This document shows, in pieces, positions 18,762 to 51,941 of a stretch of DNA of 59,018 nucleotides. Positions within the stretch are counted from its first letter, which is position 1, and every line of letters starts with the position of its first letter. Below the pieces are notes generated by a model, which did no database searches, had not been told where the DNA came from, and worked only from the letters and a program-made list of their open reading frames with translations. Where the stretch lies: positions 1 through 59,018 of the forward strand of contig CAIXZF010000070.1 of NCBI GenBank assembly GCA_903923925.1, read 5' to 3'. The position numbers and the translations under genes were made by a program. Source of the stretch: an uncultured Bacteroidales bacterium. GTDB lineage: Bacteria > Bacteroidota > Bacteroidia > Bacteroidales > CAIXZF01.

Positions 18762-18794
18762 TTTAACTATCGATCAGGATTTAAAGATAATGGA

Positions 18795-20354: not shown

Positions 20355-20395
20355 TATTTTGAGGATTTAATTTTAATCGGCTAAATTATAGAAAA

Positions 20396-21688: not shown

Positions 21689-21693
21689 GATAT

Positions 21694-22428: not shown

Positions 22429-22512
22429 CCAGATTGTTTCGCGGTTGTATTTTCGGTTTTGGGAACCTTCTATCTCATATGAAGCTTTCAAATTCGGCTT
22501 TGTAAAAGTGTT

Positions 22513-27087: not shown

Positions 27088-28380
27088 TCAGTTCAAGGTT
27101 ACACTTTTGTATACTTGCAGCATCTTTTCTGTAAGCTTAGTACAATCAAATTTTTCTTCGATAGCTTTTCGCCCTGCAATACTCATTTTAATAAGCAAAT
27201 CCTTATCTGAAATGACTTCTTTGAGCTTAGTTGCCAGCGCTTCTGCTGTATTCGGGTGGTAGATTACTCCTCCGCCCGATGATTGTATAATTTCCGGGAA
27301 AGCTCCAAGATTTGGCTGAACCAGCGGAATGCCTGCCGCCATAGCTTCCAGCTGGTAGAGTCCGAATGCTTCCCCTTTTAAAACCGGCACCGAAAGCACT
27401 GTTATATTTTTAAGAAATGCTTTAATACCATCAGCTGTGAAATCATCAAAAAACACAACATCTTTAACACTATTTGCAGTCCTGAGTTTAGATAACTGTT
27501 TGTTAATAAAAGCTTTATCGTCATTTGTTCTGCCACCTGTAACATGAAGTCTGAGTGATTTAAACTCCTTAAAAGATTTCAGTCTGATGAAGGCATCTAC
27601 AAGGACTCCAAAACCGTTTTCTTCACAAATTCTTGAGAGAAATCCAATAGCAGGCGAGCTTGTATTTGGTTGATTATATTCATATTGGCCCGGCAATATT
27701 CCAATAGGAATTCGATGAATTTTTTCATCGGGAATTGAGAGTTTCGTTTTCATCAGGTCTGCGAAGAAGTCACTTACTGCTACGAAGGCATCCACATCGC
27801 GGGCCTTTTCAGCAAGCAATTTCCATATTTTATCCTGGTAATTCTGGTGCATTGCATCAATCCAGACATCCTCATCCTGAAGTGAACAAACTACCGGAAT
27901 TCCCACCTCCTTTTTTATCAAAGCAGCCATCCCCAGAAGCAGGGCATTGGAAAAGTGAACTACATCAGGTTTCTCGTGGTATTTGAGATAATCAACCAGC
28001 TGCCGAAGTTCTGTTGCCTGGTTCCCATCAATACCAAGCAGCATAGATTCTGTCATGGCTTCCAGTCCTTCGGCTCGCGTTGAGCCGGCTTTACTTGCAG
28101 CATATTTAAGAATCCATTTTGCATTAAACATATGTTCCATCCATCCGGGCATATTTCGAAGCCATGGAAATTGCTGTTTCAGATAAATATTCACAGCACC
28201 ATAAAATACAGGTATTTCCGACTGCTCGAGGTTTCCATTCATAGTAAGCGGAAGGTAAACCGGCAGCGTTATTGCATCGTGCCCCGCTTGCCGCAATGAT
28301 CGCACATAGGCACTGTCGCGCAAACAGTTACCGCAATAAAATGTGCCTCCAAATCCTGGTACTATGTTGATAATTTTCAT
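27088..28380 (-). CDS. Glycosyltransferase family 4 (GT-B, group 1)
   Basis: EX7E region 'EAFGLYQLEAMAAGIPLV'; 'FIRLKS...LHVTGG'. Confidence 0.8.
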   Translation of the reverse strand: MKIINIVPGFGGTFYCGNCLRDSAYVRSLRQAGHDAITLPVYLPLTMNGNLEQSEIPVFYGAVNIYLKQQFPWLRNMPGWMEHMFNAKWILKYAASKAGSTRAEGLEAMTESMLLGIDGNQATELRQLVDYLKYHEKPDVVHFSNALLLGMAALIKKEVGIPVVCSLQDEDVWIDAMHQNYQDKIWKLLAEKARDVDAFVAVSDFFADLMKTKLSIPDEKIHRIPIGILPGQYEYNQPNTSSPAIGFLSRICEENGFGVLVDAFIRLKSFKEFKSLRLHVTGGRTNDDKAFINKQLSKLRTANSVKDVVFFDDFTADGIKAFLKNITVLSVPVLKGEAFGLYQLEAMAAGIPLVQPNLGAFPEIIQSSGGGVIYHPNTAEALATKLKEVISDKDLLIKMSIAGRKAIEEKFDCTKLTEKMLQVYKSVTLN

Positions 28381-28405
28381 TTTGCAATAATTTATAAGAA
28401 ACTAA

Positions 28406-28423
28406 GACATGCCATGGCATGTC
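28406..28423 (-). terminator. Palindrome GACATGCCATGGCATGTC followed by a U-rich tract on the minus strand. Putative terminator of the long minus-strand operon.
   Basis: 18-bp perfect palindrome. The minus-strand downstream sequence is 'TTAGTTTCTT'. Lies between the stop of 28447..31050 and the start of 27088..28380. Confidence 0.45.
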
Positions 28424-28446
28424 CATACAGAATTGTTTATGTGTTA

Positions 28447-31050
28447 CTAATGACCGAAGGCATAAACTTTTCCATCCTGAGCCCCGACCACAATAAATTC
28501 AGAAATAACCGCTGCTGTGCTTCCCGAAGGACTCCCGATGTCGAAGTTCCAGCACTCTTTGCCTGTGGAAATATTTAAAACAAGAAGTCTGCCCTCACCA
28601 GATACAATAATTACATAATTTCCTGCGATAACTGGCGATGCGTCGACCTTCCCCAGTACTTTTGTTTTCCAGAGTACTTTTCCTTTCAATGCATTAAAAC
28701 AATAAACATAATGATTCTGAGTGCCGGTGATAACTCTGCTTTCATCAATTGCAGGAGATGCAAGAAAGGACCCGCTGACTTCTGTTTGCCATAAAACTTT
28801 CTTTTGCCGGGTATTGATACAATAGAAAATACCATCATAATTGCCAAAAAAGGCTTTGTCTCCCTTAGTTGTAGGTGAGGCAGGAATGTAAGTTCCAATG
28901 TCGTTATTGCCAGTTTCCTTTCCTGTATCTGTATTTACATAGCGCAACATTCCGTCGCAACCACCGAAAACTGCATTTCTTCCGCTTATTGCAGGCGAAC
29001 CGTTTATGAAATTCTCTGTTGCGAATTTCCAGATTACTTTTCCGGAAGAAGCATCCAGGCAATACAGGTTAAAATCATAACTTCCCACAAGAATCCTTTT
29101 CTGAATCTTATCCGGACCGTATGTCCAGTTGCAGGCACCGGAAATCTGACCATCTGTTTTGTATTTCCATTTCAATTTGCCGCTATTTGCATCAAAAGCA
29201 AACAGAATACCCCCGAGTGATCCTATAAAAACGGTATTGTCAAGAATTAGGGGAGGAGCTTCTATCGCGGTTTTAGTATTGTATTTCCATTTTAACTGCC
29301 CTGCTGTTGTAAGTGCGTACAGATTTCCGTCGTTCGAGCCAATATAGATAATATCATTAAAAATTACTGCTGAAGATTTGATGGCATCTCCTGTTTTAAA
29401 TGTCCAGAGGAGTTTGAATGGCGGCGAAACAGGAGCAGCTGTGTTTCCGCTGAGTTGATTATCGCCCCTGAACGAGGGCCAGCAATTTGAGGCTTTCTGT
29501 TGGGCGAGTAATGGAATACTGAACAGAAATACGATCAGAAATGCAATTTTAAATGATAAAGCAGCTGTGGGACAGGCCTTTACGCATGCTTCTGCTTTAC
29601 TAGTGAGTGCTTTTTTAATAGATTCATTAAATGGAACACCAATTTCTACATCAAATCCCCGGCCTATATAAGTGAGTCCCGCGCTTTCTCTGTCTTCTCC
29701 GGCAATTTCAACACAAAGTCCGCAACGGATGCATTTTTGGGGTTCATATACTACAAGGTCATGCTGATAGGATTTAGTAAGAAGTTTTCTTTCAGAAGCT
29801 GCAAAATGATTCCTGTCTGCCTTATATTCATCTGAATAATTCCGAAGTTTGCAATTGCCGGCTTTGCGGCAGTCGCAATGTAGGCATCGTTTTGCTTCCT
29901 GAATTGCCTCCTTGCTGTTAAAGCCATTCAGAAATCCTTTTTCCGGTTCGAACCTATTGTCATCGGTACTTTCTTTCAGATATTCAAGCAGTTCAGATTG
30001 TGTAATTTTATTGATTCTTGAGTTGAATTTAATTCCGTGAGTTTCTGAAGTTCCGCTTAAGTAGGAGCTGGCTTTCATTGCTGCTGATTTACCTTGTGCC
30101 GCTGAACGGATGGCCATTTTTTGTTCACGGATGAAACTTCCGCAGGTGAAAACATTCTGAGGAAAAACTTCACCAAAAACACGTTTCGACTCCTCATCTT
30201 TAATTCCTGCTGCGAGAATAACAGCATCAAAATTCTCCTGAAAATCATTCCAGTTTTCTTTCGTTACCGAGTGGTTCATAATAAACTGGCCTCCCATTCT
30301 TCTGATAACATCTATATCAGCATCCAGCATAGTTCCTGGAAGAATTTCATCAGGAATTTCATACCGTAATGTTCCGCCTGGCTGTGAATTTTTATCGAAA
30401 AGGATGCAGGTATGTCCCGATTTGAGAAGGTAAAAAGCAGCTGAAAGTCCAGCGGGACCAGTGCCGATTACAGCGACCTTTTTCCCCGATTTTTCTGTTA
30501 AAGGAAGTTGAGGGATACTGCGATTGGAACCCACGGCAGTAAACCTTTTGAGCAAACAGATTGAGACAGCTCCGTCCAGACTTTTACGATGACAGGCTTT
30601 TTCGCAGGGTGCTGCACAAATATATCCCATTACAAGGGGTAAGGCAATTTCTTCCAGAACAACTTCAAGTGCTGTCTGAATATTTCCAACTGCAATCAAA
30701 CGATTCATGAGAGGGATATTCATAAAAGCAGGGCATGATAAACGGCAGGGAGCTTCACAATCGCCAACATGATCGCTTAAAAGAAGCTCAAGCGCTTCTT
30801 TTCGCGCAGCAAGAACATCAGGTGAATTCGTAATAAGCTGCATTCCCGACCCACATGGCATGGCACAGGAGGGGAACAGATTTCCTGTTCTCTGATCCTT
30901 AACCAGGCATACCATACAGGATGGATGGCAGGAATGATCCTTTAAATAACACATCGATGGAATCTGAATGCCAATAGAAGCAGCTGCCTGCATAACAGAT
31001 GTACCATCTTCAACTTCAATTTCCGTATTATTTACCGTTAATTTTATCAT
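28447..31050 (-). CDS. In-frame fusion of three parts. N-terminus: NuoG-type 2Fe-2S domain plus GltD/NfnB-like FAD/NAD(P)H Fe-S oxidoreductase plus 2x[4Fe-4S] ferredoxin. Middle: hydrophobic signal-peptide-like segment. C-terminus: PQQ-like 8-bladed beta-propeller.
   Basis: 'MIKLTVNNTEIEVEDGTSVMQAAASIGIQIPSMCYLKDHSCHPSCMVCLV' matches a NuoG/HydA N-terminal 2Fe-2S domain. Rossmann motif 'VAVIGTGPAGLSAAFYL' with 'DKNSQPGGTLRYEIP' matches GltD. Ferredoxin 'CIRCGLCVEIA...CVKACPTAAL'. Then 'KIAFLIVFLFSIPLLAQQKASNCWPSFRGDN' is followed by PQQ-type repeats ('...DGNLYALTTAGQLKWKY', 'LFAFDANSGKLKWKY', 'LYCLDASSGKVIWKF', 'VYCFNALKGKVLWKT'). The junction is at about nt 29495-29548. Confidence 0.7.
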   Translation of the reverse strand: MIKLTVNNTEIEVEDGTSVMQAAASIGIQIPSMCYLKDHSCHPSCMVCLVKDQRTGNLFPSCAMPCGSGMQLITNSPDVLAARKEALELLLSDHVGDCEAPCRLSCPAFMNIPLMNRLIAVGNIQTALEVVLEEIALPLVMGYICAAPCEKACHRKSLDGAVSICLLKRFTAVGSNRSIPQLPLTEKSGKKVAVIGTGPAGLSAAFYLLKSGHTCILFDKNSQPGGTLRYEIPDEILPGTMLDADIDVIRRMGGQFIMNHSVTKENWNDFQENFDAVILAAGIKDEESKRVFGEVFPQNVFTCGSFIREQKMAIRSAAQGKSAAMKASSYLSGTSETHGIKFNSRINKITQSELLEYLKESTDDNRFEPEKGFLNGFNSKEAIQEAKRCLHCDCRKAGNCKLRNYSDEYKADRNHFAASERKLLTKSYQHDLVVYEPQKCIRCGLCVEIAGEDRESAGLTYIGRGFDVEIGVPFNESIKKALTSKAEACVKACPTAALSFKIAFLIVFLFSIPLLAQQKASNCWPSFRGDNQLSGNTAAPVSPPFKLLWTFKTGDAIKSSAVIFNDIIYIGSNDGNLYALTTAGQLKWKYNTKTAIEAPPLILDNTVFIGSLGGILFAFDANSGKLKWKYKTDGQISGACNWTYGPDKIQKRILVGSYDFNLYCLDASSGKVIWKFATENFINGSPAISGRNAVFGGCDGMLRYVNTDTGKETGNNDIGTYIPASPTTKGDKAFFGNYDGIFYCINTRQKKVLWQTEVSGSFLASPAIDESRVITGTQNHYVYCFNALKGKVLWKTKVLGKVDASPVIAGNYVIIVSGEGRLLVLNISTGKECWNFDIGSPSGSTAAVISEFIVVGAQDGKVYAFGH

Positions 31051-33420
31051 TTATTGAATAATTACGGAATTTACAGGACAAATCTGCCGGCATATATCAC
31101 ACTTTATACATTTCTCGTGATCAATGTTATGCAGTTCATAAGGTTTAAATTCGATGGCATCAGCAGGGCATTGCTGAGCACATTTAGTACATCCGATACA
31201 ATCGTTTGTTATACAATAGGTTATTAATGGAAGGCATTTCCCGGCAGGGCAGATTCCTTTCAGATGAGCTTCATATTCCTCGCGGAAATAATGTAAAGTC
31301 GAAAGGATAGGGTTAGGAGCAGTTTTTCCCAGGCCGCAGAGGCTGCCGCTTTTAGTACTTCTGGCTAGCTTTTCCAGCCTGATAAGGTCAATTTCATCTG
31401 CTTTGCCTTTCCGGATATTTTCTAATATTTCAAGCATTCTCCTTGTACCTATTCTGCAAAAGGTACACCTTCCACACGATTGATTTTGAGTGAATGAAAG
31501 GAAATAATGTGCAATATCAACCATGCAATCTGTCTCATCAAGAACGATAAGTCCACCTGAACCCATCATAGAGCCAGCTGCTGCAAGTTCTTCAAAATCA
31601 ATGGCTAATTCTGCCTTAGATGCAGGAATACAGCCTCCAGAAGGGCCTCCGATTTGAACTGCTTTAAACTTCAATCCACCAGGAATACCTCCTCCGATTT
31701 CTTCCACAATCTGCCGGATCGTAATCCCCATAGGAACCTCAATAAGCCCCCCTCGCTTCACTTTACCGGCAAGGGCGAAAACCTTCGTTCCCTTACTGTT
31801 TGCTGTGCCATTAGCAGCAAATGCATCGGCCCCATGTTGCAGTATCCACGGAATCATGGAGAATGTTTCTGTATTGTTAATTAATGTGGGATGCTTGTGA
31901 AGCCCGCTAACAGCAGGATAAGGCGGTCGAAGCCTGGGGATTCCGCGTTTTCCTTCCACCGAAGCAATTAGTGCAGTTTCTTCGCCGCAAACAAAGGCAC
32001 CTGCACCTTCGAAAATTTCTATATCAAATGAAAACGTACTACCAAAAACAGATTGCCCGAGAATACCTTCTTTTTTACAGATAGCAAGTGCTTCGGCAAT
32101 CCGTTTAACAGCCAGAGGGTACTCAGCCCTGATGTAGAAAAGACCTTTGGTAGCAGACGTAGCGTAGGCAGCAATCAGCATCCCTTCTATTATCCGGAAT
32201 GGATACGACTCCAGCAGCATCCGGTCCATGAATGCACCAGGATCGCCTTCGTCACCGTTACAGATCAGGTATTTTTCTGCACTAATCTGATCTTTAACAA
32301 GTTGCCATTTTGTCCCAGTCGGGAAACCAGCGCCTCCTCTTCCTCTCAGACCACTATTCTTTATAATTTCAATGATCTGCTGTGATGATAACGAAGAAAG
32401 ACAATGTTCCAGAGCCTTGAAGCCTCCAGAATTTTTGTACTCCGTGAGATCGCAGGGTTTTAAAACTCCTCTGTTTTCGGTCGCTATTGCTAATTGAGGC
32501 CCTAAAAATTCTGATAGCGGTGTATCACGTTGTTCCCAGTTGTATTTCCGGAACGATTGCTGTTTTCCTTCCTCAATTACTCTTTCGAAAAGTCCTAAGA
32601 AATTGGATTTAAGTCTGTTAACAAGTCCTGAAGGTTGAAAATGCTTCAAAACAACAGCTCTCACCTCATCGGGTCTTATTTTTGCATAAAAGGCAGTTGG
32701 CTCTCCGGGTTTTACGATCTCCAGCACTGGCACCTGGTTACAGATTCCAACGCAGCCCACTTGTTTCACAATTACATCAAGCTTTGTCTGTTTTATTGTT
32801 CTGTCGAGTTCATTTTTTACTTCCATGCTGCCGCTCGCCGCACAACAAGAACCGAGACCGATACGAATTTCGCCTTTCCCATGCTGAATCTCAGACAACA
32901 TCTGAGTTTCAGATCTCATCTCAAGAGGTTGAGAGGTAGTTGACCTCAGTTGAAAATCAATCAAAACTTCACCAACTGTCTGAGCTGAAACATGCCCATA
33001 GGTTACTTCATCAATTTTTACAACAGGTGCCAGTGTGCAACACCCAAGGCAGGCAACCTTTTCAATGGTAAATTCCCCTGCAGTATCTGTATCCGAATCT
33101 TCTTCCAACTTTAATTCACGGCGGAATGCATCAAGAACAGTTAGTGCGCCTTTCACATGGCAGGCCGTTCCTGTGCATACTTTTATAATATGTTTTCCAG
33201 CTTTTTTGTGCCGGAATTGTGAATAGAATGTTGATATTCCAGTAATTGATGAAGCTGTGATTTCTGTGATCTCACAAACTCTCTGCAAAGCTTCCTCGGG
33301 CAGGTAGTTGAATTTCTGTTGAATTTCCTGAAGAATAGGGATAACAGCCTCGGGAGAAGTAGTATGCCGGGCTACAATTCTGTCGACAATTGACGAGATG
33401 TTTTCTTCCTTTTTCTCCAT
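31051..33420 (-). CDS. Fused NuoE-like (2Fe-2S) and NuoF-like (FMN, NADH, 4Fe-4S) protein with C-terminal 2x[4Fe-4S] ferredoxin. HydC-HydB/StnB-StnC-like NADH-binding flavoprotein.
   Basis: NuoE motifs 'CTGTACHVKGA' and 'CLGCCTLAPV'. NuoF motifs 'LRGRGGAGFPTGTKW', 'GEETALIASVEG' and 'QSCGRCTFCRIGT'. C-terminal 'CIGCTKCAQQCP' and 'CIKCDICRQICP'. The first ATG is at 33420 and forms a TAATG overlap with the stop of the upstream gene; the ORF-track start at 33435 is a TTG. Confidence 0.85.
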   Translation of the reverse strand: MEKKEENISSIVDRIVARHTTSPEAVIPILQEIQQKFNYLPEEALQRVCEITEITASSITGISTFYSQFRHKKAGKHIIKVCTGTACHVKGALTVLDAFRRELKLEEDSDTDTAGEFTIEKVACLGCCTLAPVVKIDEVTYGHVSAQTVGEVLIDFQLRSTTSQPLEMRSETQMLSEIQHGKGEIRIGLGSCCAASGSMEVKNELDRTIKQTKLDVIVKQVGCVGICNQVPVLEIVKPGEPTAFYAKIRPDEVRAVVLKHFQPSGLVNRLKSNFLGLFERVIEEGKQQSFRKYNWEQRDTPLSEFLGPQLAIATENRGVLKPCDLTEYKNSGGFKALEHCLSSLSSQQIIEIIKNSGLRGRGGAGFPTGTKWQLVKDQISAEKYLICNGDEGDPGAFMDRMLLESYPFRIIEGMLIAAYATSATKGLFYIRAEYPLAVKRIAEALAICKKEGILGQSVFGSTFSFDIEIFEGAGAFVCGEETALIASVEGKRGIPRLRPPYPAVSGLHKHPTLINNTETFSMIPWILQHGADAFAANGTANSKGTKVFALAGKVKRGGLIEVPMGITIRQIVEEIGGGIPGGLKFKAVQIGGPSGGCIPASKAELAIDFEELAAAGSMMGSGGLIVLDETDCMVDIAHYFLSFTQNQSCGRCTFCRIGTRRMLEILENIRKGKADEIDLIRLEKLARSTKSGSLCGLGKTAPNPILSTLHYFREEYEAHLKGICPAGKCLPLITYCITNDCIGCTKCAQQCPADAIEFKPYELHNIDHEKCIKCDICRQICPVNSVIIQ

Positions 33421-35210
33421 TATTTCGAGATGCAATAAATGTTTTTATTTCCCCTCAGAAAGATCATTCCATCGGCAAAAGCTGGTGTGCAGAAGGAACC
33501 TTCTCCAAGCTGTGGCTCAGCAATTGAAGTAAAGATTTTGTCGGCCTTGAAAATATGCATAATGCCTTTGCTGTCAAGCAGATAGATTTTTCCTTCAACA
33601 AGCACAGGCGACGAATAAACCTTATTGCCAAACTCTTTTTCCCATAATTTCTTGCCGGTTTTCGCTTCATAACATGCAACAGTGCCATAACTGGTTGTAA
33701 GGAAGAGGTAATTTTCTGTAGCAACAGGGCTTGGCACATCCGATAAATACTCGGTATCTTCCCAAAGAATTTTTGGTGTATCGCCAATCTGTATCGCTGA
33801 AAGTTTCGAATATTCGTTCACTGCATATACAATGCCATCAGCGTATGCCAGAGAAGGCCCGACTTCTCCCGATATACAGTCGATTTTCCACAGTTCTTTT
33901 CCGGTAACTGCATCATAAGAGGCCACACTAGGATCGGCGGCCAGAATAATCTCCACTCTACTGCCAGTATTTACAACAATGGGTGAAGCCCAGGAAATCC
34001 GCACCTTGCGTGGGGTATTCCAAATAACGTCTCCTGTTTTCCCGGCAAGTGCTGTAATGCTGGCGCTGCCACTCTGATCGTATTGAACGATGAGTTTATC
34101 CTGAAACATCATCAATGATGAGGAGTGCCCGTAATGATTTTTAGGCAGGCCAAGGTTTTTACTCCAAACCTTTTCACCTTCCATATTGAGTGCAATCAAA
34201 TCACCATTTGCAAAAATGGCATAAACTCTTCTGCCATCGGTAGTTAGTGTGGGAGCAGAGAAACCGGTTTCAATATTAACTTTTGGTGCTTGTCCGGGGC
34301 TGCCGGGAATTTTATCCACAGTGGTTTTCCAGACAAGCTTTCCGGAATTCACATCCAGGCAATATACTTCCCGGGTTTTTTCGTTAGCCCCTGACAGGAA
34401 AAGTTTATCTTTCCAAACAATCGGGGAATTATATCCCTGCAAAGGAATATTCGTCTTCCATTTGATATTTTTACCGCTCTTCCCATCCCAATTTACAGGG
34501 ATATTTTTCTGCCATGCAATGCCATTTCCACCCGGACCCCGGAAAGAAGTGAAATTAGAGCGAATTTCCTGAATTCCGGGAAAACCGTCGACAGAGGAAG
34601 AAGATGCAACAGTGTTTGAATCTGGAGAATCATTGGTATTGCCATCTAATTCTTGCGCACTGTTCTTCTCAATTCCATTAAAACGTTCTGAAGAATCTGC
34701 CGATTTTGAGTTCATTAACAAGGCAATGTCAATTTCCCTTCCCAATTCATTATGCGAAAGCCAGGCAAAAATGAAGGCCGTTACAAATAGAAATATTCCC
34801 GCTCCCGCTATCCAGTTTCTGCTTATTTTACGAAGTTCGAATATGTTAAACTTCTTAGAATCAGGAACTTCAGGAAGTTTATGTCTGAAATATTCAATGA
34901 TCTGCAGACAGATAATTATTACAAGGATGCTGCAAAACAAAAGTAAGCCACCCGTTTTTACCTGCCATTGATTGGTGAAGAAAGCGCGACGGGCCAGCAG
35001 ATCCAGTTCACGTATTTGGTCTCTAAGCTGCTGATTTTCAGGATTTGCCTGCAACTGATCAACCATCGAATTTAAGGCTTTCGTGTTCAGTGGATCAGCA
35101 CGTTGAAGCTGCAAGTAGTTAACAATAATCAATACGCAAAGCAGCACAGCAAGCACAGCGCTTATGATGGCGATGTTTTGCAAAAGGCGGATGTTTGGTT
35201 TGATTATCAA
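33420..35210 (-). CDS. Membrane-anchored PQQ-like beta-propeller protein. Three N-terminal TM segments, a low-complexity linker, then the propeller. TTG start.
   Basis: TM 'NIAIISAVLAVLLCVLIIVNYL', 'GGLLLFCSILVIIICLQII', 'AGAGIFLFVTAFIFAWL'. Repeats 'VYCLDVNSGKLVWKT', 'LIALNMEGEKVWSKN', 'ITALAGKTGDVIWNT', 'VASYDAVTGKELWKI', 'VACYEAKTGKKLWEK'. N-terminal propeller motif 'FTSFRGPGGNG'. Confidence 0.7.
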   Translation of the reverse strand: MIIKPNIRLLQNIAIISAVLAVLLCVLIIVNYLQLQRADPLNTKALNSMVDQLQANPENQQLRDQIRELDLLARRAFFTNQWQVKTGGLLLFCSILVIIICLQIIEYFRHKLPEVPDSKKFNIFELRKISRNWIAGAGIFLFVTAFIFAWLSHNELGREIDIALLMNSKSADSSERFNGIEKNSAQELDGNTNDSPDSNTVASSSSVDGFPGIQEIRSNFTSFRGPGGNGIAWQKNIPVNWDGKSGKNIKWKTNIPLQGYNSPIVWKDKLFLSGANEKTREVYCLDVNSGKLVWKTTVDKIPGSPGQAPKVNIETGFSAPTLTTDGRRVYAIFANGDLIALNMEGEKVWSKNLGLPKNHYGHSSSLMMFQDKLIVQYDQSGSASITALAGKTGDVIWNTPRKVRISWASPIVVNTGSRVEIILAADPSVASYDAVTGKELWKIDCISGEVGPSLAYADGIVYAVNEYSKLSAIQIGDTPKILWEDTEYLSDVPSPVATENYLFLTTSYGTVACYEAKTGKKLWEKEFGNKVYSSPVLVEGKIYLLDSKGIMHIFKADKIFTSIAEPQLGEGSFCTPAFADGMIFLRGNKNIYCISK

Positions 35211-35228
35211 GGGGATTTGTTTTAACTT

Positions 35229-35414
35229 TTAATTTAATTTCATCATCAGAAAATCATCCAGATTGATTTGTTTTATTCCCTGGTCGATAAGCTGATACAA
35301 GAGGTAACTTTTTCCAACTCTTCGCTGTCCTGTAATTACCTTAATGATTTGTTTGCCAATAAACAGTTGAATTTTAGCAATATATTCCGGCCGGACTGTG
35401 TATTTATGTTTCAT
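35229..35414 (-). pseudogene. Remnant 61-aa N-terminal fragment of an AAA-family ATPase gene (Walker A only)
   Basis: '...KVITGQRRVGKSYLLYQLI' is a Walker A motif resembling the N-termini of ~400-aa Bacteroidota AAA/DUF4143 ATPases. The ORF stops after 61 aa, and the space downstream is occupied by the next gene. Confidence 0.4.
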
Positions 35415-35443
35415 GTATATCGTAAAAAAAACTGATGAATAAT

Positions 35444-36706
35444 TTATACTTTAACCGGACAATACTCAATGCATCTGTTACAACTTAAGCATGTTCCTTT
35501 ATTTGGAACGTAATCTGGATTGTAATTTGTAATAAGCCGGCCAGCGATCAGAAGGCCAAAGGTTAATCCCATGAAACCACCCAGTAACCAGCCACCGATA
35601 TAGAATTTGCGCAGGATTTCATTTGTTTCTTCAAGTAGTTGTTTAGCAGGCTTTCCGGAGGATTTGAAAGCTTTTATCTCATAGGATTCAGGTTTTTCCT
35701 GCATTTTTACCGGATCCATTACAGCTTTGGCGAGCCTCACACGAGGATTAACTTCTGCCAATGTTGTGTGTAACTTTGAACCGGTGTAACCGCCAGCTGC
35801 AATTAAAACAGGAATTAGAATGCATATCAGTATGAATTTTTTAAGTAACTCTTGTTTTGTTTCCGGATTTTTTACAGTGATGGGGATATTGATGGCATCA
35901 TAGGGACAAGTATTTTCACAAAGCTTACATTGAATGCAATTAGCAGGAGTGATGGTCATATGCTTTTTTGAAAACCGGCTGAACCAGTTCAGGATAACAC
36001 CATACGGACAAAGAAAACGACAATAGGGTCTTGCAATAAAAACGCCGCTGCCTAGCAGAATACCTGCAAACACAAACATCCCGAATGAGGCATTAAGCCT
36101 GAATATTCCAACAAAGGGATCGTATCTGCAGATGATGAAATCGGTGCCAGTTGCAGCATAGAGTACGGCCAAACCAAGGTATAAATAGGGCAAGAGTCCA
36201 AGAACGGAATTGAGTCGTGAGCCCATTTTTTGAGGTTGTATTGCTACCAGGTCCTGCATTGCCCCGAATGGACAAACACCTGCACAAAAGGTTCGACCAT
36301 AAAATAAGGTAAATACCAGCGGAATTACAAAAAATGCCAATGCAGTGAAGGGCAAAGTGTAAGCTGAATAGAAAAGTCCAAGGCTTACATTCTGAATAGC
36401 TCCGATTGAACATACACAACCTTCGCGGTAAAAACCAAAATATGCCAGGCTGAAAATTGAAATCCAGAAAACGCCTTTGCGGCTGCGTTTTTTAAGTATT
36501 AACCAGCTAATCAGAGATAAAGTGCTTAACAAAACCAATACATCCAGGTAGGCGAGGAGTTCATAACGCGGGCCGGGTTGCAAAGTTTCAGGTTGGGTAT
36601 AAGCTGATTCAAATTCAGGTTTTGGAAAGCGTTGTTTGGCAAAACTTTCCATCGACTGAAACAAAGTAAGCAGGAACAACAGAAATAAAATGGCCTTCTT
36701 TCTCAT
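35444..36706 (-). CDS. NapH/MauN/CcoG-like polytopic membrane iron-sulfur protein
   Basis: Signal peptide 'MRKKAILFLLFLLTLFQSMESFA'. Cytoplasmic-loop CX3CP motifs 'FCAGVCPFGAMQDL' and 'YCRFLCPYGVILNW'. C-terminal ferredoxin motifs 'CIQCKLCENTCPYDAI' and 'CLSCNRCIEYCPVKV'. Confidence 0.8.
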   Translation of the reverse strand: MRKKAILFLLFLLTLFQSMESFAKQRFPKPEFESAYTQPETLQPGPRYELLAYLDVLVLLSTLSLISWLILKKRSRKGVFWISIFSLAYFGFYREGCVCSIGAIQNVSLGLFYSAYTLPFTALAFFVIPLVFTLFYGRTFCAGVCPFGAMQDLVAIQPQKMGSRLNSVLGLLPYLYLGLAVLYAATGTDFIICRYDPFVGIFRLNASFGMFVFAGILLGSGVFIARPYCRFLCPYGVILNWFSRFSKKHMTITPANCIQCKLCENTCPYDAINIPITVKNPETKQELLKKFILICILIPVLIAAGGYTGSKLHTTLAEVNPRVRLAKAVMDPVKMQEKPESYEIKAFKSSGKPAKQLLEETNEILRKFYIGGWLLGGFMGLTFGLLIAGRLITNYNPDYVPNKGTCLSCNRCIEYCPVKV

Positions 36707-37368
36707 CCTTCCTGCTGAGTTTTATCGTTTGCCAGTCTTTCTGTACCAAAACCGTTTAGCAAATAAGGTTTGTTTGCCGGCACCCGGCTGAAGGCTTCCG
36801 AGGGACAAACCCTTGCGATAGAGCATTCGTTGCAGTTTACGCAGCGGTTGTGCCGGATTTGCAGCTGCAAGGAGCCGTTGCCAAAGGCATCACAACCCTT
36901 CACACATTTGGCGCAGCCAATGCATAAGAGTTCATCAACAGTATATTCATAAAAGGGATCCTCTATGAACTTTCTTTTTAAGGCATTTGTCGGGCACAGC
37001 TGGTTTTCGGCAGCTGTTGTAAGGGTTTTTGTTTCAGGTTTGAAATAACCACCACAAAGGTCGCAGTAGCCGCACATCACATATGCATGTGTGCACTTTA
37101 CTGCCGAAGGCGTTATTACACAAGCAGTTGCACATCGTCCGCATTGAATACATTTTGATGGGTCGAGCTGCCATACTGTACTCCTGAGGCTTACGGCTTC
37201 AGCTTGATTGCAGCTGTCGGATAAGCTGCAACTCCCGCAGGCAAAATTAAACTTGCAATTCTCATCATCCCTGCGTGGGCGCAGCATGAGAGTTCCTCCC
37301 AGAACTACAAGCCCGGTTAATAATCCTCCTCGTACGCATTTCGCAATAAATTCCCTTCTGCTAGGCAT
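36703..37368 (-). CDS. Tat-exported NapG/MauM-like poly-ferredoxin with about four [4Fe-4S] motifs
   Basis: Twin-arginine signal 'MPSRREFIAKCVRGGLLTGLVVLGGTLML'. The ATG is at 37368; the ORF-track start at 37410 is a TTG. Cys clusters 'CIQCGRCATAC', 'CGYCDLCGG', 'CIGCAKCVKGC', 'CVNCNECSIARVCP'. ATGA overlap with the NapH-like gene. Confidence 0.8.
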   Translation of the reverse strand: MPSRREFIAKCVRGGLLTGLVVLGGTLMLRPRRDDENCKFNFACGSCSLSDSCNQAEAVSLRSTVWQLDPSKCIQCGRCATACVITPSAVKCTHAYVMCGYCDLCGGYFKPETKTLTTAAENQLCPTNALKRKFIEDPFYEYTVDELLCIGCAKCVKGCDAFGNGSLQLQIRHNRCVNCNECSIARVCPSEAFSRVPANKPYLLNGFGTERLANDKTQQEG

Positions 37369-37375
37369 ACGATTT

Positions 37376-38365
37376 TCAATTATTATTTTTACTATCGATA
37401 TTCGGTGCAAAAACCCTTACCATTTTCTTTACAGGATCAAGTACTATAATTCTATCCTTTGAATCAACACAAAGATCCAATCCCCTGGTGCCTTCTTTGA
37501 ACGACTGCGGTAGTGCTACTACACATTTCAACTTTCCTTCCGAAGTGTATATTTTAACCCTTTCAATCCCTTTTTCACTTGTCACAAAAGAACCATCTTT
37601 CAGTATTGTAAAGTGGGATGGATTACAGCATCCACAAAAGCCCTCTATCTCCATAGAAGTAATACCCCAGCTTTTGATGAGATTCCCTTCAAAATCAAAC
37701 TTCTCCATCAGATGTCGGCCAGGATTAGCAACCCAGAATTCATTTATTCCGGAAATTCCGAGATCAAAATACGGACTTGGCACCACAAAACCAGGAATAC
37801 CCCTGTGTGGGTCTTTATCACCGATATGCCCAATTAACTTGCCAGAAATATCATATTGGTAAACGCTTGTTAAGCCGGCATCTGCCACAAATACATTCTT
37901 ACCATCGCTGGAAATTGAAGTAATAATTGATGATTGACTCACCGGTTCCCATTTCTCCTTCAGTTTACCATCCATGTCAAGAATTTCAATCCGATCTTCC
38001 ATACCAAGGAGGATATTTTTATCCGGATCTATTGTAATGCATAAAGCATTTCCATCAAGAGCTATTCTTTTGAGAAGATTACCAGTTTTAGTAAAGATTT
38101 CAAGAAATTTATTCCCAGCAACATAGATCCTGTCGGAATAATCCGTAGCAACACCATGCATCTCAAGCATTTGTGGTCGGAAGGCAAGGTTTTCATTATA
38201 GGACACACTTACAGAATCAAACTTATTCAGGTGTTGTATATCATATTCATAAGGATTGCTTTTACTGTATTTAACACTACTATTACTGAAAAGATCGTGT
38301 GCGATGTATGTCACTACTGAAAAAAATAAGGCTAAACCAGCAATGATTAATATTTTATGTTTCAT
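37376..38365 (-). CDS. NHL-repeat beta-propeller protein, secreted or N-terminally anchored
   Basis: N-terminal hydrophobic 'ILIIAGLALFFSVVTYIA'. NHL-like units 'KNVFVADAGLTSVYQYDISGKLIGHIG' and 'EFWVANPGRHLMEKFDFEGNLIKSWG'. Confidence 0.6.
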   Translation of the reverse strand: MKHKILIIAGLALFFSVVTYIAHDLFSNSSVKYSKSNPYEYDIQHLNKFDSVSVSYNENLAFRPQMLEMHGVATDYSDRIYVAGNKFLEIFTKTGNLLKRIALDGNALCITIDPDKNILLGMEDRIEILDMDGKLKEKWEPVSQSSIITSISSDGKNVFVADAGLTSVYQYDISGKLIGHIGDKDPHRGIPGFVVPSPYFDLGISGINEFWVANPGRHLMEKFDFEGNLIKSWGITSMEIEGFCGCCNPSHFTILKDGSFVTSEKGIERVKIYTSEGKLKCVVALPQSFKEGTRGLDLCVDSKDRIIVLDPVKKMVRVFAPNIDSKNNN

Positions 38366-38366
38366 G

Positions 38367-39842
38367 CTATTTTGCTTTAATGTCGATGCAAACCATTTGC
38401 TTCGAATCTCTCATTAATAAATATCCGCCCGTAATTGCAAGAGGTCCCCATGAATCTTGTCCGTCGATGATTTTCTTTTTACCGAGGACTTTAAATCCTG
38501 ATGGAGAAGCAGTTGCAATAGTTAGTTCACCATCATCATTGAGGATGAAGAACTTGTTATCGGCGAGTATATAAGGCCCGAGACCAAATCTAACTGTTTT
38601 TCCGCTACTCATTATCATTTTCATACAATTATCCGATTTGTAGCATACAAACTGGTTACGGGTTTCACCTGCATCCTTGGGCTGAACACCATAAACATAT
38701 CCTTTATAGAAAACAGGTGTTTGCTGCTCTGAGGCCATCCCTTCCAGTGGCTTATATTTTTGTAGTACTTCCGCAGAAAAAGTTCCTCTGTTCTCTTTAA
38801 GTTGGATAAGTAAACTTCCAGCACCATATCCTGCGGTAAACAGGATTTTTCCATCATCAAGAATACAGGGTGAAGGCGCAACTACCGAGGGTGAAAATGC
38901 AGTGGATTCCCAAAGTATTTTTCCCTTGTTTTTACCACTGCCAGAAACTCCGCAAATTCCACCAATGGCAATGTAAACATACATTTTTTCTCCGTTGAAG
39001 GTCATTGGCATTATTGATGAATGCGACATTTTCCAGTTATGCGGATTGGGAGTTTCCCAAACTTTTTTACCTGTTTTGCAATCTATTCCTATTAAAAGAG
39101 AGCTTCCTCCGGTTGCAATAATTGCTGTATCCTTGTCAATTAACGGGCATTGTCCGGTATACCAGAATGGCACCTCTGTTTTGTATTCCTTTGCCAGATC
39201 AATTCCCCAGTTTAATTTTCCACTGATCCTGTCAACGCACATCACCTGGCAGCGAGGACCTATAGTAAGCACGTATTTTTCATTCACAGCCGGAATGGTC
39301 CTTGATAAGCCATGATTTCTTTTCAACTTTACATGATACCAGCGCCTCCATAATTCAACCCCGCTTTTCAGGGAAAAACAGCGGAGCATATCCGATCTTT
39401 TAATTTCGTCATAATCAATAAGATAAACCCGGCCATCATACACTGCTGCTGCTGCATGTCCTTCTCCCAGACTTACTTTCCATAAAATTTTCGGTGCTCC
39501 TGCATCAAAGTTAGTTATGAGACGAATGTTCTCTCTGTTGATGTTATCGAAATCAGCTCCCCTGAAACGCGGCCAGCGGGTATCCGGTATATCAGTAACG
39601 CTTGTAAATGTCGAAAAACTATCGCCAATGATCACTTGTTCGGGAGGAAGCTGATTACCCTTATTCTTGTTGTCCATTCCTGGAACCGATAAGGTAAAGG
39701 TTTTAACAGGATTGTATGCCAGCCACCAAATCAGGATAACAACAGCAATAATTGCTATTGAAATGAGAACAAGACTGGCAGGTTTTCTGAACATTCTCCT
39801 ATTTTTTTCTTCTGATATCATAGGCGAGCAAAACCTGACCAT
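38367..39842 (-). CDS. Membrane-anchored PQQ-like beta-propeller protein with a single N-terminal TM
   Basis: TM 'LVLISIAIIAVVILIWWLAY'. 'WPRFRGADFDN' motif. Repeats 'QVMCVDRISGKLNWGI' and 'LIGIDCKTGKKVWET'. The alternative ATG at 39794 would remove the 44-nt overlap with the upstream gene. Confidence 0.7.
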   Translation of the reverse strand: MVRFCSPMISEEKNRRMFRKPASLVLISIAIIAVVILIWWLAYNPVKTFTLSVPGMDNKNKGNQLPPEQVIIGDSFSTFTSVTDIPDTRWPRFRGADFDNINRENIRLITNFDAGAPKILWKVSLGEGHAAAAVYDGRVYLIDYDEIKRSDMLRCFSLKSGVELWRRWYHVKLKRNHGLSRTIPAVNEKYVLTIGPRCQVMCVDRISGKLNWGIDLAKEYKTEVPFWYTGQCPLIDKDTAIIATGGSSLLIGIDCKTGKKVWETPNPHNWKMSHSSIMPMTFNGEKMYVYIAIGGICGVSGSGKNKGKILWESTAFSPSVVAPSPCILDDGKILFTAGYGAGSLLIQLKENRGTFSAEVLQKYKPLEGMASEQQTPVFYKGYVYGVQPKDAGETRNQFVCYKSDNCMKMIMSSGKTVRFGLGPYILADNKFFILNDDGELTIATASPSGFKVLGKKKIIDGQDSWGPLAITGGYLLMRDSKQMVCIDIKAK

Positions 39843-41049
39843 GCCTGATATACATCACTCCTTTATGTATTACAGGGTGGGAAAAATGTTCCTTTGTGCC
39901 GACCGTAATTTTAAATGTGCTAACGATTTCCGGTTTATTTTTGTTCGGACGAATCAGGTAAACATCTCCGGGAATAGAATAATAATAAAGCAGATTATCA
40001 GCATAAATAACTGATCCTCTGCCAATCTTCAGGGAATCAAGTGCCTGCCCGGTATTTGCATCAAAAACCCTGAAGTCTTTCCTGCTGAAATAGCAGGAAT
40101 ACAGATAATCACCCAGCTTAATAAAGCCTCCCATATAATTGTCAATCACATCGTTGCGCCAGAGCTGTGTTACTTCTTTGCCATCTTCTGAGAGTTTTAG
40201 TTTTACAGCGCCATTGCCATCGCCTTCAAAGTAATAAATGAAACCATCTTCATACCAGGCTGAGTTGCTGTGCGTATCACCATTTCCTGATTTACGCTCC
40301 TCAACTGGAATATTTACCTGCTCATGTGTCCATAAAAGTTCTCCGGTTTTTGCATCAATACCAAGCATTGCATAGGCAGTGAACGTAACAAGCAGTGTTC
40401 TTGAAGGCAGTGTTATCAGAATTGGTGAATTATAGGCAGGAGATTCCCCTTTTCCCTTACAGATCCAAACAATTTTCCCTGAGAAACGGTTAAACGCAAC
40501 CACGTTAGTGTCAATTCCCCCTGGGACAAGGTAAACAAGATCATTGTATATCAATGGCGATTCTGAATGTCCATGATAAGTGAACCTTCCATGAAGATCT
40601 TTGACCATATCCACAAACCATTTTCTAGTACCGGTTTTCAATTCAAAACATGCCAGGTTTCCCAGGCCTGAACAGGTATAGATCAAATCCTCAGTAACAG
40701 TGGGAGTTGACCGCGATCCGGGGAAAGTTTTTACCCATTCTTTGCCGTAATCCGACCTCCATTGCAGTTTGCCTTTATGGTCGAATGCGAAAAGATAGCC
40801 AATGCTGTCTTTTTCACCCATAACATAAATCCTGTCTTCAGTAATTGAAGGTGATCCATATCCATTTCCGATGCTATCGGCCTGCCATCGCTGAGCAGGC
40901 CCTCCCTCAGGCCAGCTTGTTAATAGGTCATTTTCAACGAAAATACCTTTCCGCTCAATCCCTCTCCATTGTGCAAAAGCCTGGGAATAAGAATAATAAC
41001 CTGAAGCTGTTAAAACCAGAACAAGAATAACCCGAACAATTGCCTTCAT
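39799..41049 (-). CDS. Secreted PQQ-like beta-propeller protein
   Basis: Signal peptide 'MKAIVRVILVLVLTASGYYSYSQA'. 'AQWRGIERKG' motif. PQQ-type repeats 'YLFAFDHKGKLQWRS', 'LACFELKTGTRKWFV', 'VVAFNRFSGKIVWIC', 'MLGIDAKTGELLWTH'. Confidence 0.75.
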   Translation of the reverse strand: MKAIVRVILVLVLTASGYYSYSQAFAQWRGIERKGIFVENDLLTSWPEGGPAQRWQADSIGNGYGSPSITEDRIYVMGEKDSIGYLFAFDHKGKLQWRSDYGKEWVKTFPGSRSTPTVTEDLIYTCSGLGNLACFELKTGTRKWFVDMVKDLHGRFTYHGHSESPLIYNDLVYLVPGGIDTNVVAFNRFSGKIVWICKGKGESPAYNSPILITLPSRTLLVTFTAYAMLGIDAKTGELLWTHEQVNIPVEERKSGNGDTHSNSAWYEDGFIYYFEGDGNGAVKLKLSEDGKEVTQLWRNDVIDNYMGGFIKLGDYLYSCYFSRKDFRVFDANTGQALDSLKIGRGSVIYADNLLYYYSIPGDVYLIRPNKNKPEIVSTFKITVGTKEHFSHPVIHKGVMYIRHGQVLLAYDIRRKK

Positions 41050-41053
41050 GGTA

Positions 41054-42268
41054 TTATTGTTTTAGATTGTACACCATCAGCGAGGTTCCATGCCGAACAT
41101 AGAGCCGGCCATTTGCAATAACCAGGTGAGCCCAATGCTGATTTGCCCCAAAGGGTACTTTAAAACTGCTGATTTTCTTATAGCCGGTAGAAAGAGGTTC
41201 GACCAATGCGATTTCACCACTTTCACCATAACAATATAACATTCCATCCGCCGAAATGATAGTTCCCCTGTTCACAGGCTTTTCTGAGCCAAGTTCTTTT
41301 CCGGTTTTCCAGTCGAGACTCCACCAGGCTTTACCTGAATCGTCAGAGCCATAAATAATCCCATTAAGCAGAACAAAGCCGCCCATTCTGTTGTCAAGTG
41401 AAGTATTCCGCCACAATTCTGTTACTGAACTGCCATCAGCAGCCACTTTGAGCATAATCCCTCCTTTGCCATATCCTGAAGCACAATAAAGCTGACCATC
41501 ATGAAATAATGGAGTATTTGCGTGTACAGAGTATTTATTCGGCCACTCCTGGCTCCACAATAATGTACCGTTTTCAGCATCAATACCCAGAATAGAGCTG
41601 GCTGTTTGTGTTACAACAATTTTACGATTTGGCAAACGTATCAGTGCAGGGGAACAATATGCACTTTTCTCACCATTTCCCTTACACGACCACAAAAGCT
41701 TCCCGCTCATCCTGTCAAGAGCTATTACATTCTTTTCTTTTCCGCCTGCAGTGCAGAATAATTTATTCCCATCAGCAAGCAGGTTTTCTGTAACGCCCCA
41801 TTGTATATTCTCTGCGCCATAATCTTTCATGATATCAACTTCCCAGATTTTAGCGCCATTTTCAGCAGTCATACACACAATCTTACCAAAAGAACTCATA
41901 ATGTAGAGTTTCCCATCATAAAACAGTGGGGTTGAACGGACTCCCGGCCAGCTTTCTGTCCATTCTTCTGCAAATGGAACCTGCCAGAGCAGCTTCCCAT
42001 CCAGTGAAAAAGCAAAGATAGTGCCCATTCCACTGATAGTACCCGCTGTATAAACGCGGTCTTTTGTAACTGCTGCTGAGGAATGTCCGTCGCCCAGCTC
42101 ATCAAAATGCCACAAAAGTGCAGGTCCAGCTTCTGGCCAGGCCTTACTTAAACCGGTTTCAGCATAGATTCCATCGCGGTTAATTCCGCGCCATTGAGCA
42201 ATTTCCTGTGAAAATACAAGGTTTCCAACAAAGAAAAGAAGGCAGAGAAGTGTAATTTTTTTTAGCAT
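41054..42268 (-). CDS. Secreted PQQ-like beta-propeller protein, paralogue of 39799..41049
   Basis: Signal peptide 'MLKKITLLCLLFFVGNLVFSQE'. 'AQWRGINRDG' motif. Repeats 'IFAFSLDGKLLWQV', 'IVCMTAENGAKIWEV', 'VIALDRMSGKLLWSC', 'ILGIDAENGTLLWSQ'. Confidence 0.75.
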   Translation of the reverse strand: MLKKITLLCLLFFVGNLVFSQEIAQWRGINRDGIYAETGLSKAWPEAGPALLWHFDELGDGHSSAAVTKDRVYTAGTISGMGTIFAFSLDGKLLWQVPFAEEWTESWPGVRSTPLFYDGKLYIMSSFGKIVCMTAENGAKIWEVDIMKDYGAENIQWGVTENLLADGNKLFCTAGGKEKNVIALDRMSGKLLWSCKGNGEKSAYCSPALIRLPNRKIVVTQTASSILGIDAENGTLLWSQEWPNKYSVHANTPLFHDGQLYCASGYGKGGIMLKVAADGSSVTELWRNTSLDNRMGGFVLLNGIIYGSDDSGKAWWSLDWKTGKELGSEKPVNRGTIISADGMLYCYGESGEIALVEPLSTGYKKISSFKVPFGANQHWAHLVIANGRLYVRHGTSLMVYNLKQ

Positions 42269-42540
42269 AAGAAGGAATTTAATTGAAGGTATAAATTTAG
42301 GATTTTATCGTTAATATCCTGCACAAGTGGGCTTATTGAAATTGATTCCTGATGGATACACTTTGTTAAATTTTTCCAAAAAATAATTTGGTGTCGTTCA
42401 TTAATATCCGTAACTTATATTGCTTTTTGCAAACGTGGTTTTGAAGGGGTTCTGGATATCTAAATCATACAAAACCAAAGTATTATAAAAGATGACTTGG
42501 GTTTTTACCCAAAAATCAGCAAACTTTAATCACTAACAAT

Positions 42541-51885: not shown

Positions 51886-51941
51886 CTGGTAACAACTAAG
51901 TGTGGTTTGTGCTATTGGGAGTAAGGGCAATGTTAACAATA

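Follow-up and report, generated by a model that had tools for sequence, protein, structure and literature searches.

Five PQQ-like propellers of an uncultured Bacteroidales bacterium are encoded together with the parts of a putative membrane redox system

A stretch of DNA from an uncultured Bacteroidales bacterium (GenBank assembly GCA_903923925.1, contig CAIXZF010000070.1, positions 1 to 59,018; all 59,018 nucleotides are called the window here) carries nine closely packed genes on its minus strand, spanning 42268 to 28447. They encode five beta-propellers resembling those that bind pyrroloquinoline quinone (PQQ), a further propeller of NHL type, a ferredoxin with a twin-arginine translocation (Tat) signal, a NapH-like iron–sulfur (Fe-S) membrane protein, and cytoplasmic flavin and Fe-S modules, one of which is fused to a propeller. 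The spacing between the genes is 0-7 nt or they overlap, the single exception being an interval of 233 nt in which a gene fragment lies. We call the five PQQ_2-type propellers P1 to P5, P5 being the propeller half of the protein encoded at 28447..31050. A sequence-only reading of this DNA had described them as a tandem expansion within 33420-42268; P1, P2, and P3 are indeed consecutive, but the P5 fusion lies outside that range, P4 and P5 are interleaved with redox genes, and the range holds the NHL propeller, the Tat-signal ferredoxin, and the NapH-like protein as well. What might five such propellers be doing in this company? We lean toward the view that they make up four ancient paralogue classes and act as periplasmic subunits of one conserved membrane redox system, a view supported by the nearly invariant order of the genes in 80 species and by the recurrent fusion of P5 to the cytoplasmic flavoprotein.

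To find the cluster elsewhere, an alignment of the NapH-like protein was run against a single genome from each species, which gave matches in at least 516 species, and the best 80 loci were examined, with a tblastn gene map and with 10-kb flanks that limit how far downstream each locus reaches. Its carriers are Bacteroidales of sediments and digesters; the 80 best species belong to Lentimicrobiaceae, Prolixibacteraceae, Marinifilaceae, and other Bacteroidales, with two metagenome-assembled genomes (MAGs) labelled Chlorobiota, and carriers in culture include Draconibacterium orientale DSM 25947, Ancylomarina euxinus, and Labilibaculum. The order P3-NHL-ferredoxin-NapH-P4-NuoEF-flavoprotein-P5 is complete in those of the 80 loci that are long enough, with few exceptions (no ferredoxin detected in L029, an extra weak P3-like match in L071 and L081, and a P2-like gene between the ferredoxin and NapH in L073), and the gene contexts of homologues show the same order in unrelated assemblies. 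Downstream there usually follow a GT4 glycosyltransferase, a MacB/LolD-type ABC ATPase, and, where the flank reaches, a double FtsX permease of ~1,100 aa. Clustering of all other open reading frames (ORFs) of the 80 loci yielded no further recurrent family, and neither cytochromes, molybdoenzymes, ApbE/FMN-binding proteins, nor outer-membrane barrels recur near the cluster in these loci.

All five propellers exceed the Pfam PQQ_2 threshold (58-130 bits against a cut-off of 27.6), so the earlier description of them as PQQ-like paralogues stands, and so does most of what it said about how they begin. P1 and P2 have N-terminal signal peptides (hydropathy scan and sequence reading), P3 carries a single hydrophobic helix (aa 24-42), P4 carries three (aa 12-30, 87-105, and 134-152) and after them a Ser/Asn-rich linker, and P5 is joined to a flavoprotein. 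What was overlooked is the hydrophobic helix at aa 497-519 of the fusion, which precedes P5; because of it, all five propellers are predicted to be periplasmic, and the different topologies of the earlier account come down to different tethering in the same compartment. The N-terminal motif that it described is real too (AQWRG in P1 and P2, WPRFRG in P3, FTSFRG in P4, and WPSFRG in P5), but the core common to all five is only [FW]RG.

In an all-vs-all comparison P1 and P2 are 39% identical, and every other pair stands at about 20-25%. Orthologues from the 80 species genomes fall into four classes, with median scores of 302-604 bits within a class vs 31-90 bits between classes, and each class has its own orthologues in other genomes. 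P3, P4, and P5 are single-copy and occupy the same position in essentially every long-enough locus; the class of P1 and P2 is the only one that varies in number, from 1 to 5 copies per locus (in 45 loci with a clear upstream boundary, one copy in 11, two in 19, three in 11, and four in 3), and only to this class does the word expansion apply. P2 has separate orthologues in related genomes (58-63% identity), and for 149 of the 149 P1/P2-type copies in multi-copy loci the closest relative sits in another genome, copies within one locus reaching at most 60% identity. Because the closest relatives are in other genomes and same-locus identity goes no higher than this, the comparisons indicate an ancient duplication with differential retention. 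Recent tandem duplication is rejected on the low identities, the clean classes, and the whereabouts of the nearest relatives; the paralogues are, as had been proposed, non-redundant, and near-identical duplicates they are not.

P3 and P4 are conserved in a particular manner. The AlphaFold2 (AF2) model of P3 has eight blades (predicted local distance difference test, pLDDT, 85), and across about 75 species 145 positions of P3 and 127 of P4 are conserved at 90% or more. Conserved motifs are KRNHG.SRT.PA, TGQCP, MSH.S, APSP, EQQTP, and GLGPY in P3 and NHYGHSSSL, GEVGPS, TSYG, and LGE in P4, and rings of conserved polar residues (His/Ser/Glu/Gln/Arg) precede the inner strands of successive blades, as placed from the order of secondary structure. 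Propeller active and ligand sites usually lie just before the inner strands. Since the polar rings stand there and so many positions are conserved, P3 and P4 look more like proteins with pockets or tight interfaces than like plain scaffolds. The loop between helices 1 and 2 of P4 (aa 31-86, predicted periplasmic) has a conserved motif of its own, P....L...IR..DLL.RRA.F...WQ...G, and the membrane domain of P4, this suggests, may be more than an anchor.

To which known family might these propellers belong? We applied the curated NCBIfam cut-offs (285.2 bits for BamB, TIGR03300/NF008351; 480 bits for PQQ dehydrogenase, TIGR03075), and none of the nine cluster proteins reaches a curated NCBIfam cut-off. 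The sequence-only reading had compared the propellers to BamB-like scaffolds, and in fold it chose well: like BamB, they are 8-bladed PQQ_2-type propellers of similar size, and BamB is the closest solved fold, its chains being the top Foldseek matches of the P3 model (E about 3e-17, target-normalised TM score 0.72-0.74), with tetrathionate hydrolase the other close solved fold. Membership in the BamB family is nevertheless rejected, with TIGR03300 scores of 69.1 (P1), 40.5 (P2), 27.5 (P3), 76.4 (P4), and 144.1 bits (P5), all far below the cut-off. Unlike BamB, P1 and P2 have no evident lipoprotein signal (the lipobox Cys is absent, by eye, at their cleavage sites VFS-QE and SYS-QA), P3 and P4 are anchored by inner-membrane helices, P5 is either part of the fusion or preceded by a signal peptide of AxA type, and the genes lie beside redox rather than BAM genes; the pocket-like conservation of P3 and P4 counts against the scaffold half of the comparison as well.

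With the PQQ alcohol and methanol dehydrogenases the propellers share Pfam PQQ/PQQ_2 repeats and a periplasmic location, but these families are rejected too. The TIGR03075 scores are 45.5 (P1), 37.0 (P2), none (P3), 61.5 (P4), and 75.9 bits (P5), and the propeller parts measure about 350-400 aa vs about 550-700 aa, some 200 aa shorter, in agreement with the earlier remark that they are too short for enzymes of this type. They come without an encoded cytochrome partner (neither pqq genes nor a cytochrome c was found in the window or the 80 loci), and the one vicinal Cys pair of this cluster belongs to the NHL protein and to none of the PQQ-like propellers. Tetrathionate hydrolase (PDB 6l8a) is likewise a cofactor-free 8-bladed PQQ-like propeller, an enzyme, and one of the top fold and sequence matches for P3 and P4; the sequence similarity, however, is low (E 1e-5 to 1e-7), covers only parts of the protein, and is shifted against the repeat register (in the profile search, E 1.4e-5 over three short segments). 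Homology over the whole length, with the catalytic Asp region, is thus not seen, and membership was rejected, the match giving no support for a shared active site.

The NHL protein is a propeller of another sort. Its AF2 model (pLDDT 84) has six blades on an N-terminal helix and matches the NHL domains of TRIM2/TRIM3 in Foldseek (E 1.5e-17, target-normalised TM score 0.80), and the Pfam NHL score of 19.5 bits falls just under the cut-off of 20. The segment F243-x-G-C246-C247-N-P is invariant in 81 of 81 orthologues, which share no further invariant Cys or His. Among 1.84 billion representatives, a profile search returned 1,316 clusters at 50% identity with E <=1e-30, nearly all of proteins of 300-360 aa, and GCCNP is kept in 147 of the 150 best cluster representatives. 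In methanol dehydrogenase, vicinal Cys residues make a strained disulfide above PQQ, and in MerA, MerT, and ArsD they serve as ligands of Hg or As. The pair in the NHL protein is the one obvious feature of this kind in the end module, and it is the best candidate there for a redox-active or metal-binding site.

In NapGH systems the clusters of NapH are cytoplasmic and NapG is exported by Tat, and a pair of similar design is encoded here. The NapH-like protein scores 59.1 bits against Pfam Fer4_5 (cut-off 22) and is polytopic, with CX3CP motifs and two cluster motifs. Across 80 sequences, 15 Cys vary little or not at all: those of the CX3CP motifs (C141/C145 and C229/C233), those of two CxxCxxCxxxCP motifs (C257-C267 and C406-C416) with a two-helix hairpin between them, and C97, C99, and C193. 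The positive-inside rule and the order of the helices would put the last three on periplasmic loops and the others on the cytoplasmic side. In the ferredoxin, SRREF is followed by a hydrophobic stretch, and across 75 sequences RR.F and four Cys motifs show conservation of 95% or more. Sequence searches of the two proteins against solved structures found generic ferredoxin motifs alone. The arrangement is that of NapGH, MauMN, and NosGH (a Fer4_5 protein with CX3CP and predicted cytoplasmic clusters, paired with a Tat-exported multi-cluster ferredoxin), but it differs from NapGH in the extra helices and hairpin between the two cluster motifs, in a partner that is a Bfu-type NADH module and not demonstrably quinol, and in terminal proteins that are propellers instead of Nap, Nos, or NirS. 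Meheust et al. (2021, PMC8238504) proposed that NapH-like proteins conduct electrons across the membrane, linking periplasmic enzymes with the cytoplasmic or the quinone side; the same role is proposed here, in a cluster that, unlike the systems of that study, is without an FMN-binding domain and without ApbE. Two irregular versions of the pair were seen. At 9341..11290 of L019, in one MAG, the ferredoxin and NapH-like sequences run together in one ORF of 649 aa with the NapH signal peptide internal, and at 3540..3755 of L003 the Tat signal and Cys-rich N-terminus of the ferredoxin form a 71-aa ORF of their own just upstream of a ferredoxin gene of 190 aa, the result of either a frameshift or a true splitting of the gene.

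On the cytoplasmic side, the 794-aa fusion of NuoE-like, NuoF-like, and ferredoxin parts matches Pfam 2Fe-2S_thioredx, Complex1_51K, NADH_4Fe-4S, and Fer4_21, and 329 of its positions are conserved at 90% or more. Its best solved relative is NfnB (9n5u_B; aa 190-792 align to 7-593, the whole length of BfuB, E 2e-199), and other close ones are the B chains of 8oh5 (which we take to be the StnABC transhydrogenase of Sporomusa ovata) and 9bov and HydB, whereas plain NuoF aligns only over aa 330-724. A NuoF-like protein with an N-terminal [2Fe-2S] and C-terminal 2x[4Fe-4S] domains, together with a NuoE-like part, is the core by which the Bfu family is defined in its survey (Schut et al. 2022, PMC9304861; see also PMC11829005), and by domain content the fusion is equivalent to BfuC plus BfuB in one chain. 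The BfuA-like half of the second protein has a NuoG-type [2Fe-2S], GltD-type Fe-S clusters, a Rossmann motif of the flavin adenine dinucleotide (FAD) type, and C-terminal 2x[4Fe-4S], as Bfu partners do; GxGxxG and GG motifs are conserved. It aligns to NfnA and, in two blocks, to the 1,172-aa chain 8oh5_C (2-321 to 4-324 and 299-498 to 465-671), skipping chain residues 325-464. The roughly 140 aa that are absent correspond to the NAD(P)H-binding domain region of GltD-type proteins, a single GxGxxG motif is present, and all orthologues are short (about 520 aa). Nfn-Bfu/Stn members are marked by a BfuA in which an NADP(H)-binding domain accompanies the GltD-type FAD domain; the BfuA-like half departs from this pattern, and with its NADPH-binding domain deleted, NADP(H) is ruled out as third substrate of the module.

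As far as sequence can tell, then, the cytoplasmic module most resembles the bifurcating Stn and NfnABC enzymes (8oh5 and 9n5u), from which it differs in the fusion of BfuC and BfuB, in the shortened BfuA, and in being encoded with membrane and periplasmic partners to one of which it is sometimes fused through a transmembrane helix. In PMC9304861, the Bacteroidetes members are placed under 'Nfn', Bfu enzymes are soluble cytoplasmic complexes, with only two membrane-bound types predicted, a periplasmic partner goes unmentioned, and term searches for 'propeller', 'PQQ', and 'NapH' yield no match.

That two proteins for opposite sides of a membrane should be joined in one chain might raise a suspicion of faulty assembly. 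We reject this explanation: the fused sequence is identical in an independent assembly (P0001), and there are seven further clusters of fused proteins, at 40-52% identity. P5 stands unfused in 53 loci, with its own signal peptide and often with a 4-nt overlap with the flavoprotein stop, and P5 of the window is 62% identical to a separate 371-aa gene of L005. In the window about three residues lie between the last Fe-S domain and the helix at 497-519, and in each of six junctions inspected (P0002-P0007) a hydrophobic segment is kept between the last CPTGA-type cluster motif and W..FRG. An ordinary signal peptide occupies this place in unfused orthologues, and we read the helix as the former signal peptide of P5, which would now link a cytoplasmic and a periplasmic half. 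The fused forms stand at three positions at least in a rough neighbour-joining tree, in which the window's nearest relative, P0009, is unfused; a fusion that recurs in this fashion is a Rosetta-stone link, tying a periplasmic propeller to the redox module of the cytoplasm.

How could such a system work? NADH, and probably ferredoxin, would react at the cytoplasmic Bfu/Stn-type module formed by the NuoE-NuoF-ferredoxin fusion and the BfuA-like protein, whose Fe-S chain would end at the membrane surface and pass electrons to the cytoplasmic clusters of the NapH-like protein. From there the electrons would traverse the membrane to the Tat-exported four-cluster ferredoxin and go on to a periplasmic end station made of the NHL protein, tethered P3, P4, and P5, and a variable number of soluble P1/P2 proteins, in which the polar central faces of P3 and P4 might bind a substrate or cofactor or dock partner proteins. 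The physical complex, the outward flow of electrons, bifurcation, and catalysis by the propellers are matters that we infer from gene content; the multi-subunit periplasmic assembly suggested earlier is plausible on the strength of synteny and fusions. Export of electrons along an Fe-S wire would consume membrane potential rather than build it, and it would fit either a reductive function in the envelope or bifurcation, in which the 'downhill' electron goes to an acceptor in the periplasm and the other reduces ferredoxin. We also entertain, tentatively, a more specific possibility, namely a membrane-spanning complex of the Bfu family whose third substrate is extracytoplasmic and in which ferredoxin would be a co-substrate or co-product of NADH oxidation, the propeller-only periplasmic module being a new cofactor-light reductase built from the NHL Cys pair and the P3/P4 pockets; candidate substrates would be sulfur compounds of the disulfide/polysulfide type or a metal(loid).

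Several observations pull the other way. Apart from the ferredoxin, no periplasmic component of the cluster has a recognisable redox cofactor site, which leaves the exit of the electrons unexplained, and the case for complex formation is one of genomic context. The NapH-like protein misses the NCBIfam TIGR02163 cut-off (46.0 vs 213 bits), and the ferredoxin matches no NapG model in NCBIfam and scores below NapG-type cut-offs; because of this we speak of likeness to NapG/MauM and not of membership. The FAD motif of the flavoprotein is only partly conserved, its GD-motif Asp being absent. Fused P5 keeps a possible signal-peptidase site, LLA-QQ, at which the tether may be cut, and the single ferredoxin-NapH ORF of L019 would, if real, give an inconsistent topology, although it may be an artefact of assembly or a frameshift.

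Might the PQQ-like propellers simply be cofactor-free, BamB-like platforms for the ferredoxin, the NHL protein, or a MacB-type machine, with the chemistry done at the NHL or NapH-like protein? Most known PQQ_2 proteins without PQQ are scaffolds, the closest fold is that of BamB, Pfam and NCBIfam reveal no cofactor-binding signature in the propellers, and a copy number of P1/P2 that wanders between one and five would suit such a role. The same explanation must accommodate the conserved positions of P3 and P4, with their polar motifs before the inner strands, and four distinct classes kept across at least 80 species, and we consider it rather unlikely. Quite improbable, in our estimation, is the reverse arrangement, a periplasmic dehydrogenase in which the propellers bind PQQ or a scavenged or protein-derived quinone and oxidise a periplasmic substrate, the electrons travelling inward by way of the ferredoxin and then the NapH-like protein and ending in quinone or in the NAD+/ferredoxin module. 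The reduction of NAD+ or ferredoxin is beyond the reducing power of quinoprotein-type donors, proteins of 370-400 aa face a norm of at least 550, the TIGR03075 scores are low where there are any (37-76 bits, P3 none, vs 480), and neither a cytochrome c nor pqq genes accompany the cluster, and these points must be set against the Pfam PQQ and PQQ_2 matches, a Bfu-type module that is reversible in principle, and the NapH-like genes that lie beside ExaA-type PQQ proteins in 172 genomes (PMC8238504).

There remains the plainest account of all, that the genes are coincidental neighbours or interchangeable copies from a recent tandem duplication. Adjacency on one strand and the 39% identity of P1 and P2 are what it has to offer, and it is hardly credible, being already contradicted by the results on synteny, classes, tree, and nearest relatives: identity between classes is 20-25%, class-specific orthologues hold the same position in nearly every long-enough locus, no same-locus copies are each other's closest relatives or exceed 60%, and the flavoprotein-P5 fusion recurs.

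If the propellers do belong to a membrane redox system, there would be a new route linking the NADH and ferredoxin pools of fermentative Bacteroidales to the chemistry of the cell envelope, by way of a Bfu-type module whose gene neighbours specify a transmembrane Fe-S conduit and periplasmic partners, one of these partners being in some genomes part of the same polypeptide. A functional setting would be gained, for the first time, for the very large set of propellers annotated only as 'PQQ-binding-like' or 'BamB family', for the NHL family, and for the puzzling cytoplasmic Fe-S clusters of NapH-like proteins, and, with carriers in culture, the question is directly testable. The component parts belong to known kinds. 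The combination of genes, the loss of the NADPH domain, the cross-membrane fusion, and the GCCNP family of NHL proteins appear to be undescribed, and no description of the cluster was found in the literature that we searched.

Table 1. Coordinates of the propeller and redox genes, and of three downstream genes, in the window
Feature	Position	Strand	Length or basis
P1, secreted PQQ_2-type 8-bladed propeller, AQWRG, signal peptide	41054..42268	-	404 aa
P2, secreted PQQ_2-type propeller, AQWRG	39799..41049	-	416 aa; 39% identity to P1
P3, propeller on one N-terminal transmembrane helix, single-copy class	38367..39842	-	ORF of 491 aa
NHL-type 6-bladed propeller with N-terminal anchor helix	37376..38365	-	329 aa
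Tat-signal ferredoxin, four Cys motifs	36703..37368	-	221 aa from MPSRREF; ORF reaches 37410
NapH-like polytopic Fe-S membrane protein	35444..36706	-	Pfam Fer4_5
P4, propeller after three-helix membrane domain and Ser/Asn-rich linker, single-copy	33420..35210	-	596 aa
Fusion of NuoE-like, [2Fe-2S], NuoF-like (flavin mononucleotide, FMN, and NADH site), and C-terminal 2x[4Fe-4S] parts	31051..33435	-	794 aa
Flavo-FeS/P5 fusion protein, whole	28447..31050	-	867 aa
BfuA-like half of fusion protein, aa 1-496	29563..31050	-	Pfam domains, 8oh5_C alignment
Hydrophobic helix of fusion protein, aa 497-519, ALSFKIAFLIVFLFSIPLLAQQK	29494..29562	-	hydropathy scan
P5 propeller domain of fusion protein, aa 520-867, WPSFRG	28447..29493	-	Pfam PQQ_2
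GT4 glycosyltransferase	27088..28380	-	syntenic with cluster in most loci
MacB/LolD-type ABC ATPase	26344..27072	-	syntenic with cluster in most loci
Double FtsX permease, 1096 aa	23057..26347	-	syntenic with cluster in most loci

For P3 and the Tat-ferredoxin, the starts set by gene callers lie inside the longer ORFs of the program-made list, and the likely start of P3 is the ATG at 39794, which gives a protein of 475 aa. The gap of 233 nt between the NapH-like and P4 genes contains, at 35229..35414 (minus strand), a 61-aa ORF (MKHKYTVRPEYIAKIQLFIGKQIIKVITGQRRVGKSYLL...) that is the Walker-A N-terminus only of an AAA_14-type ATPase and looks like a gene remnant; the fragment is also called in other assemblies of the same organism (L086 and L088), and the two flanking genes abut or overlap in L001 and L004/L005 and are 100 nt apart in L003. 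In the 66 nt between the P5 stop and the GT4 start there is a perfect 8-bp hairpin containing GC pairs (GGACATGCCATGGCATGTCT, 28405..28424, minus strand), which may be a terminator or attenuator dividing the redox genes from the GT4-ABC-FtsX set. A k-mer search of the 300 nt upstream of the first propeller gene gave a weak signal, the 8-mer TATTTAGA in 17 of 72 regions; a related 8-mer, ATTTAGAT, lies within the upstream region of the window (about 42269..42568), and the element could be a promoter or an operator.

The downstream genes are subject to insertion in one 5.47-Mb genome (L004/L005, 11636..18932), where P5 and GT4 are separated by a Bro-N gene and GT4 and the ABC ATPase by an amtB-glnB pair (ammonium transporter and P-II), the flanking synteny being otherwise kept. 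In the window the FtsX permease is directly followed by a gene for a ResA/TlpA-like periplasmic thiol-disulfide oxidoreductase (22513..23028, minus strand), which was detected in no fetched locus; few of these pass FtsX, and L001 and L003, which do, have other genes there. Farther downstream on the same strand (18048..22491) is a set for polysaccharide export and synthesis, with an ABC-2 permease, a Wzt-type ATPase with Wzt_C, an RgpF-like protein, and a GT2 protein. Four giant surface proteins of 1,087-2,437 aa are encoded at 67..7380, 9465..12728, 46756..51939, and 51979..56910; they carry PKD, HYR, CARDB, or lamin-tail domains together with C-terminal sorting domains of type IX secretion, which fits an origin in Bacteroidota.

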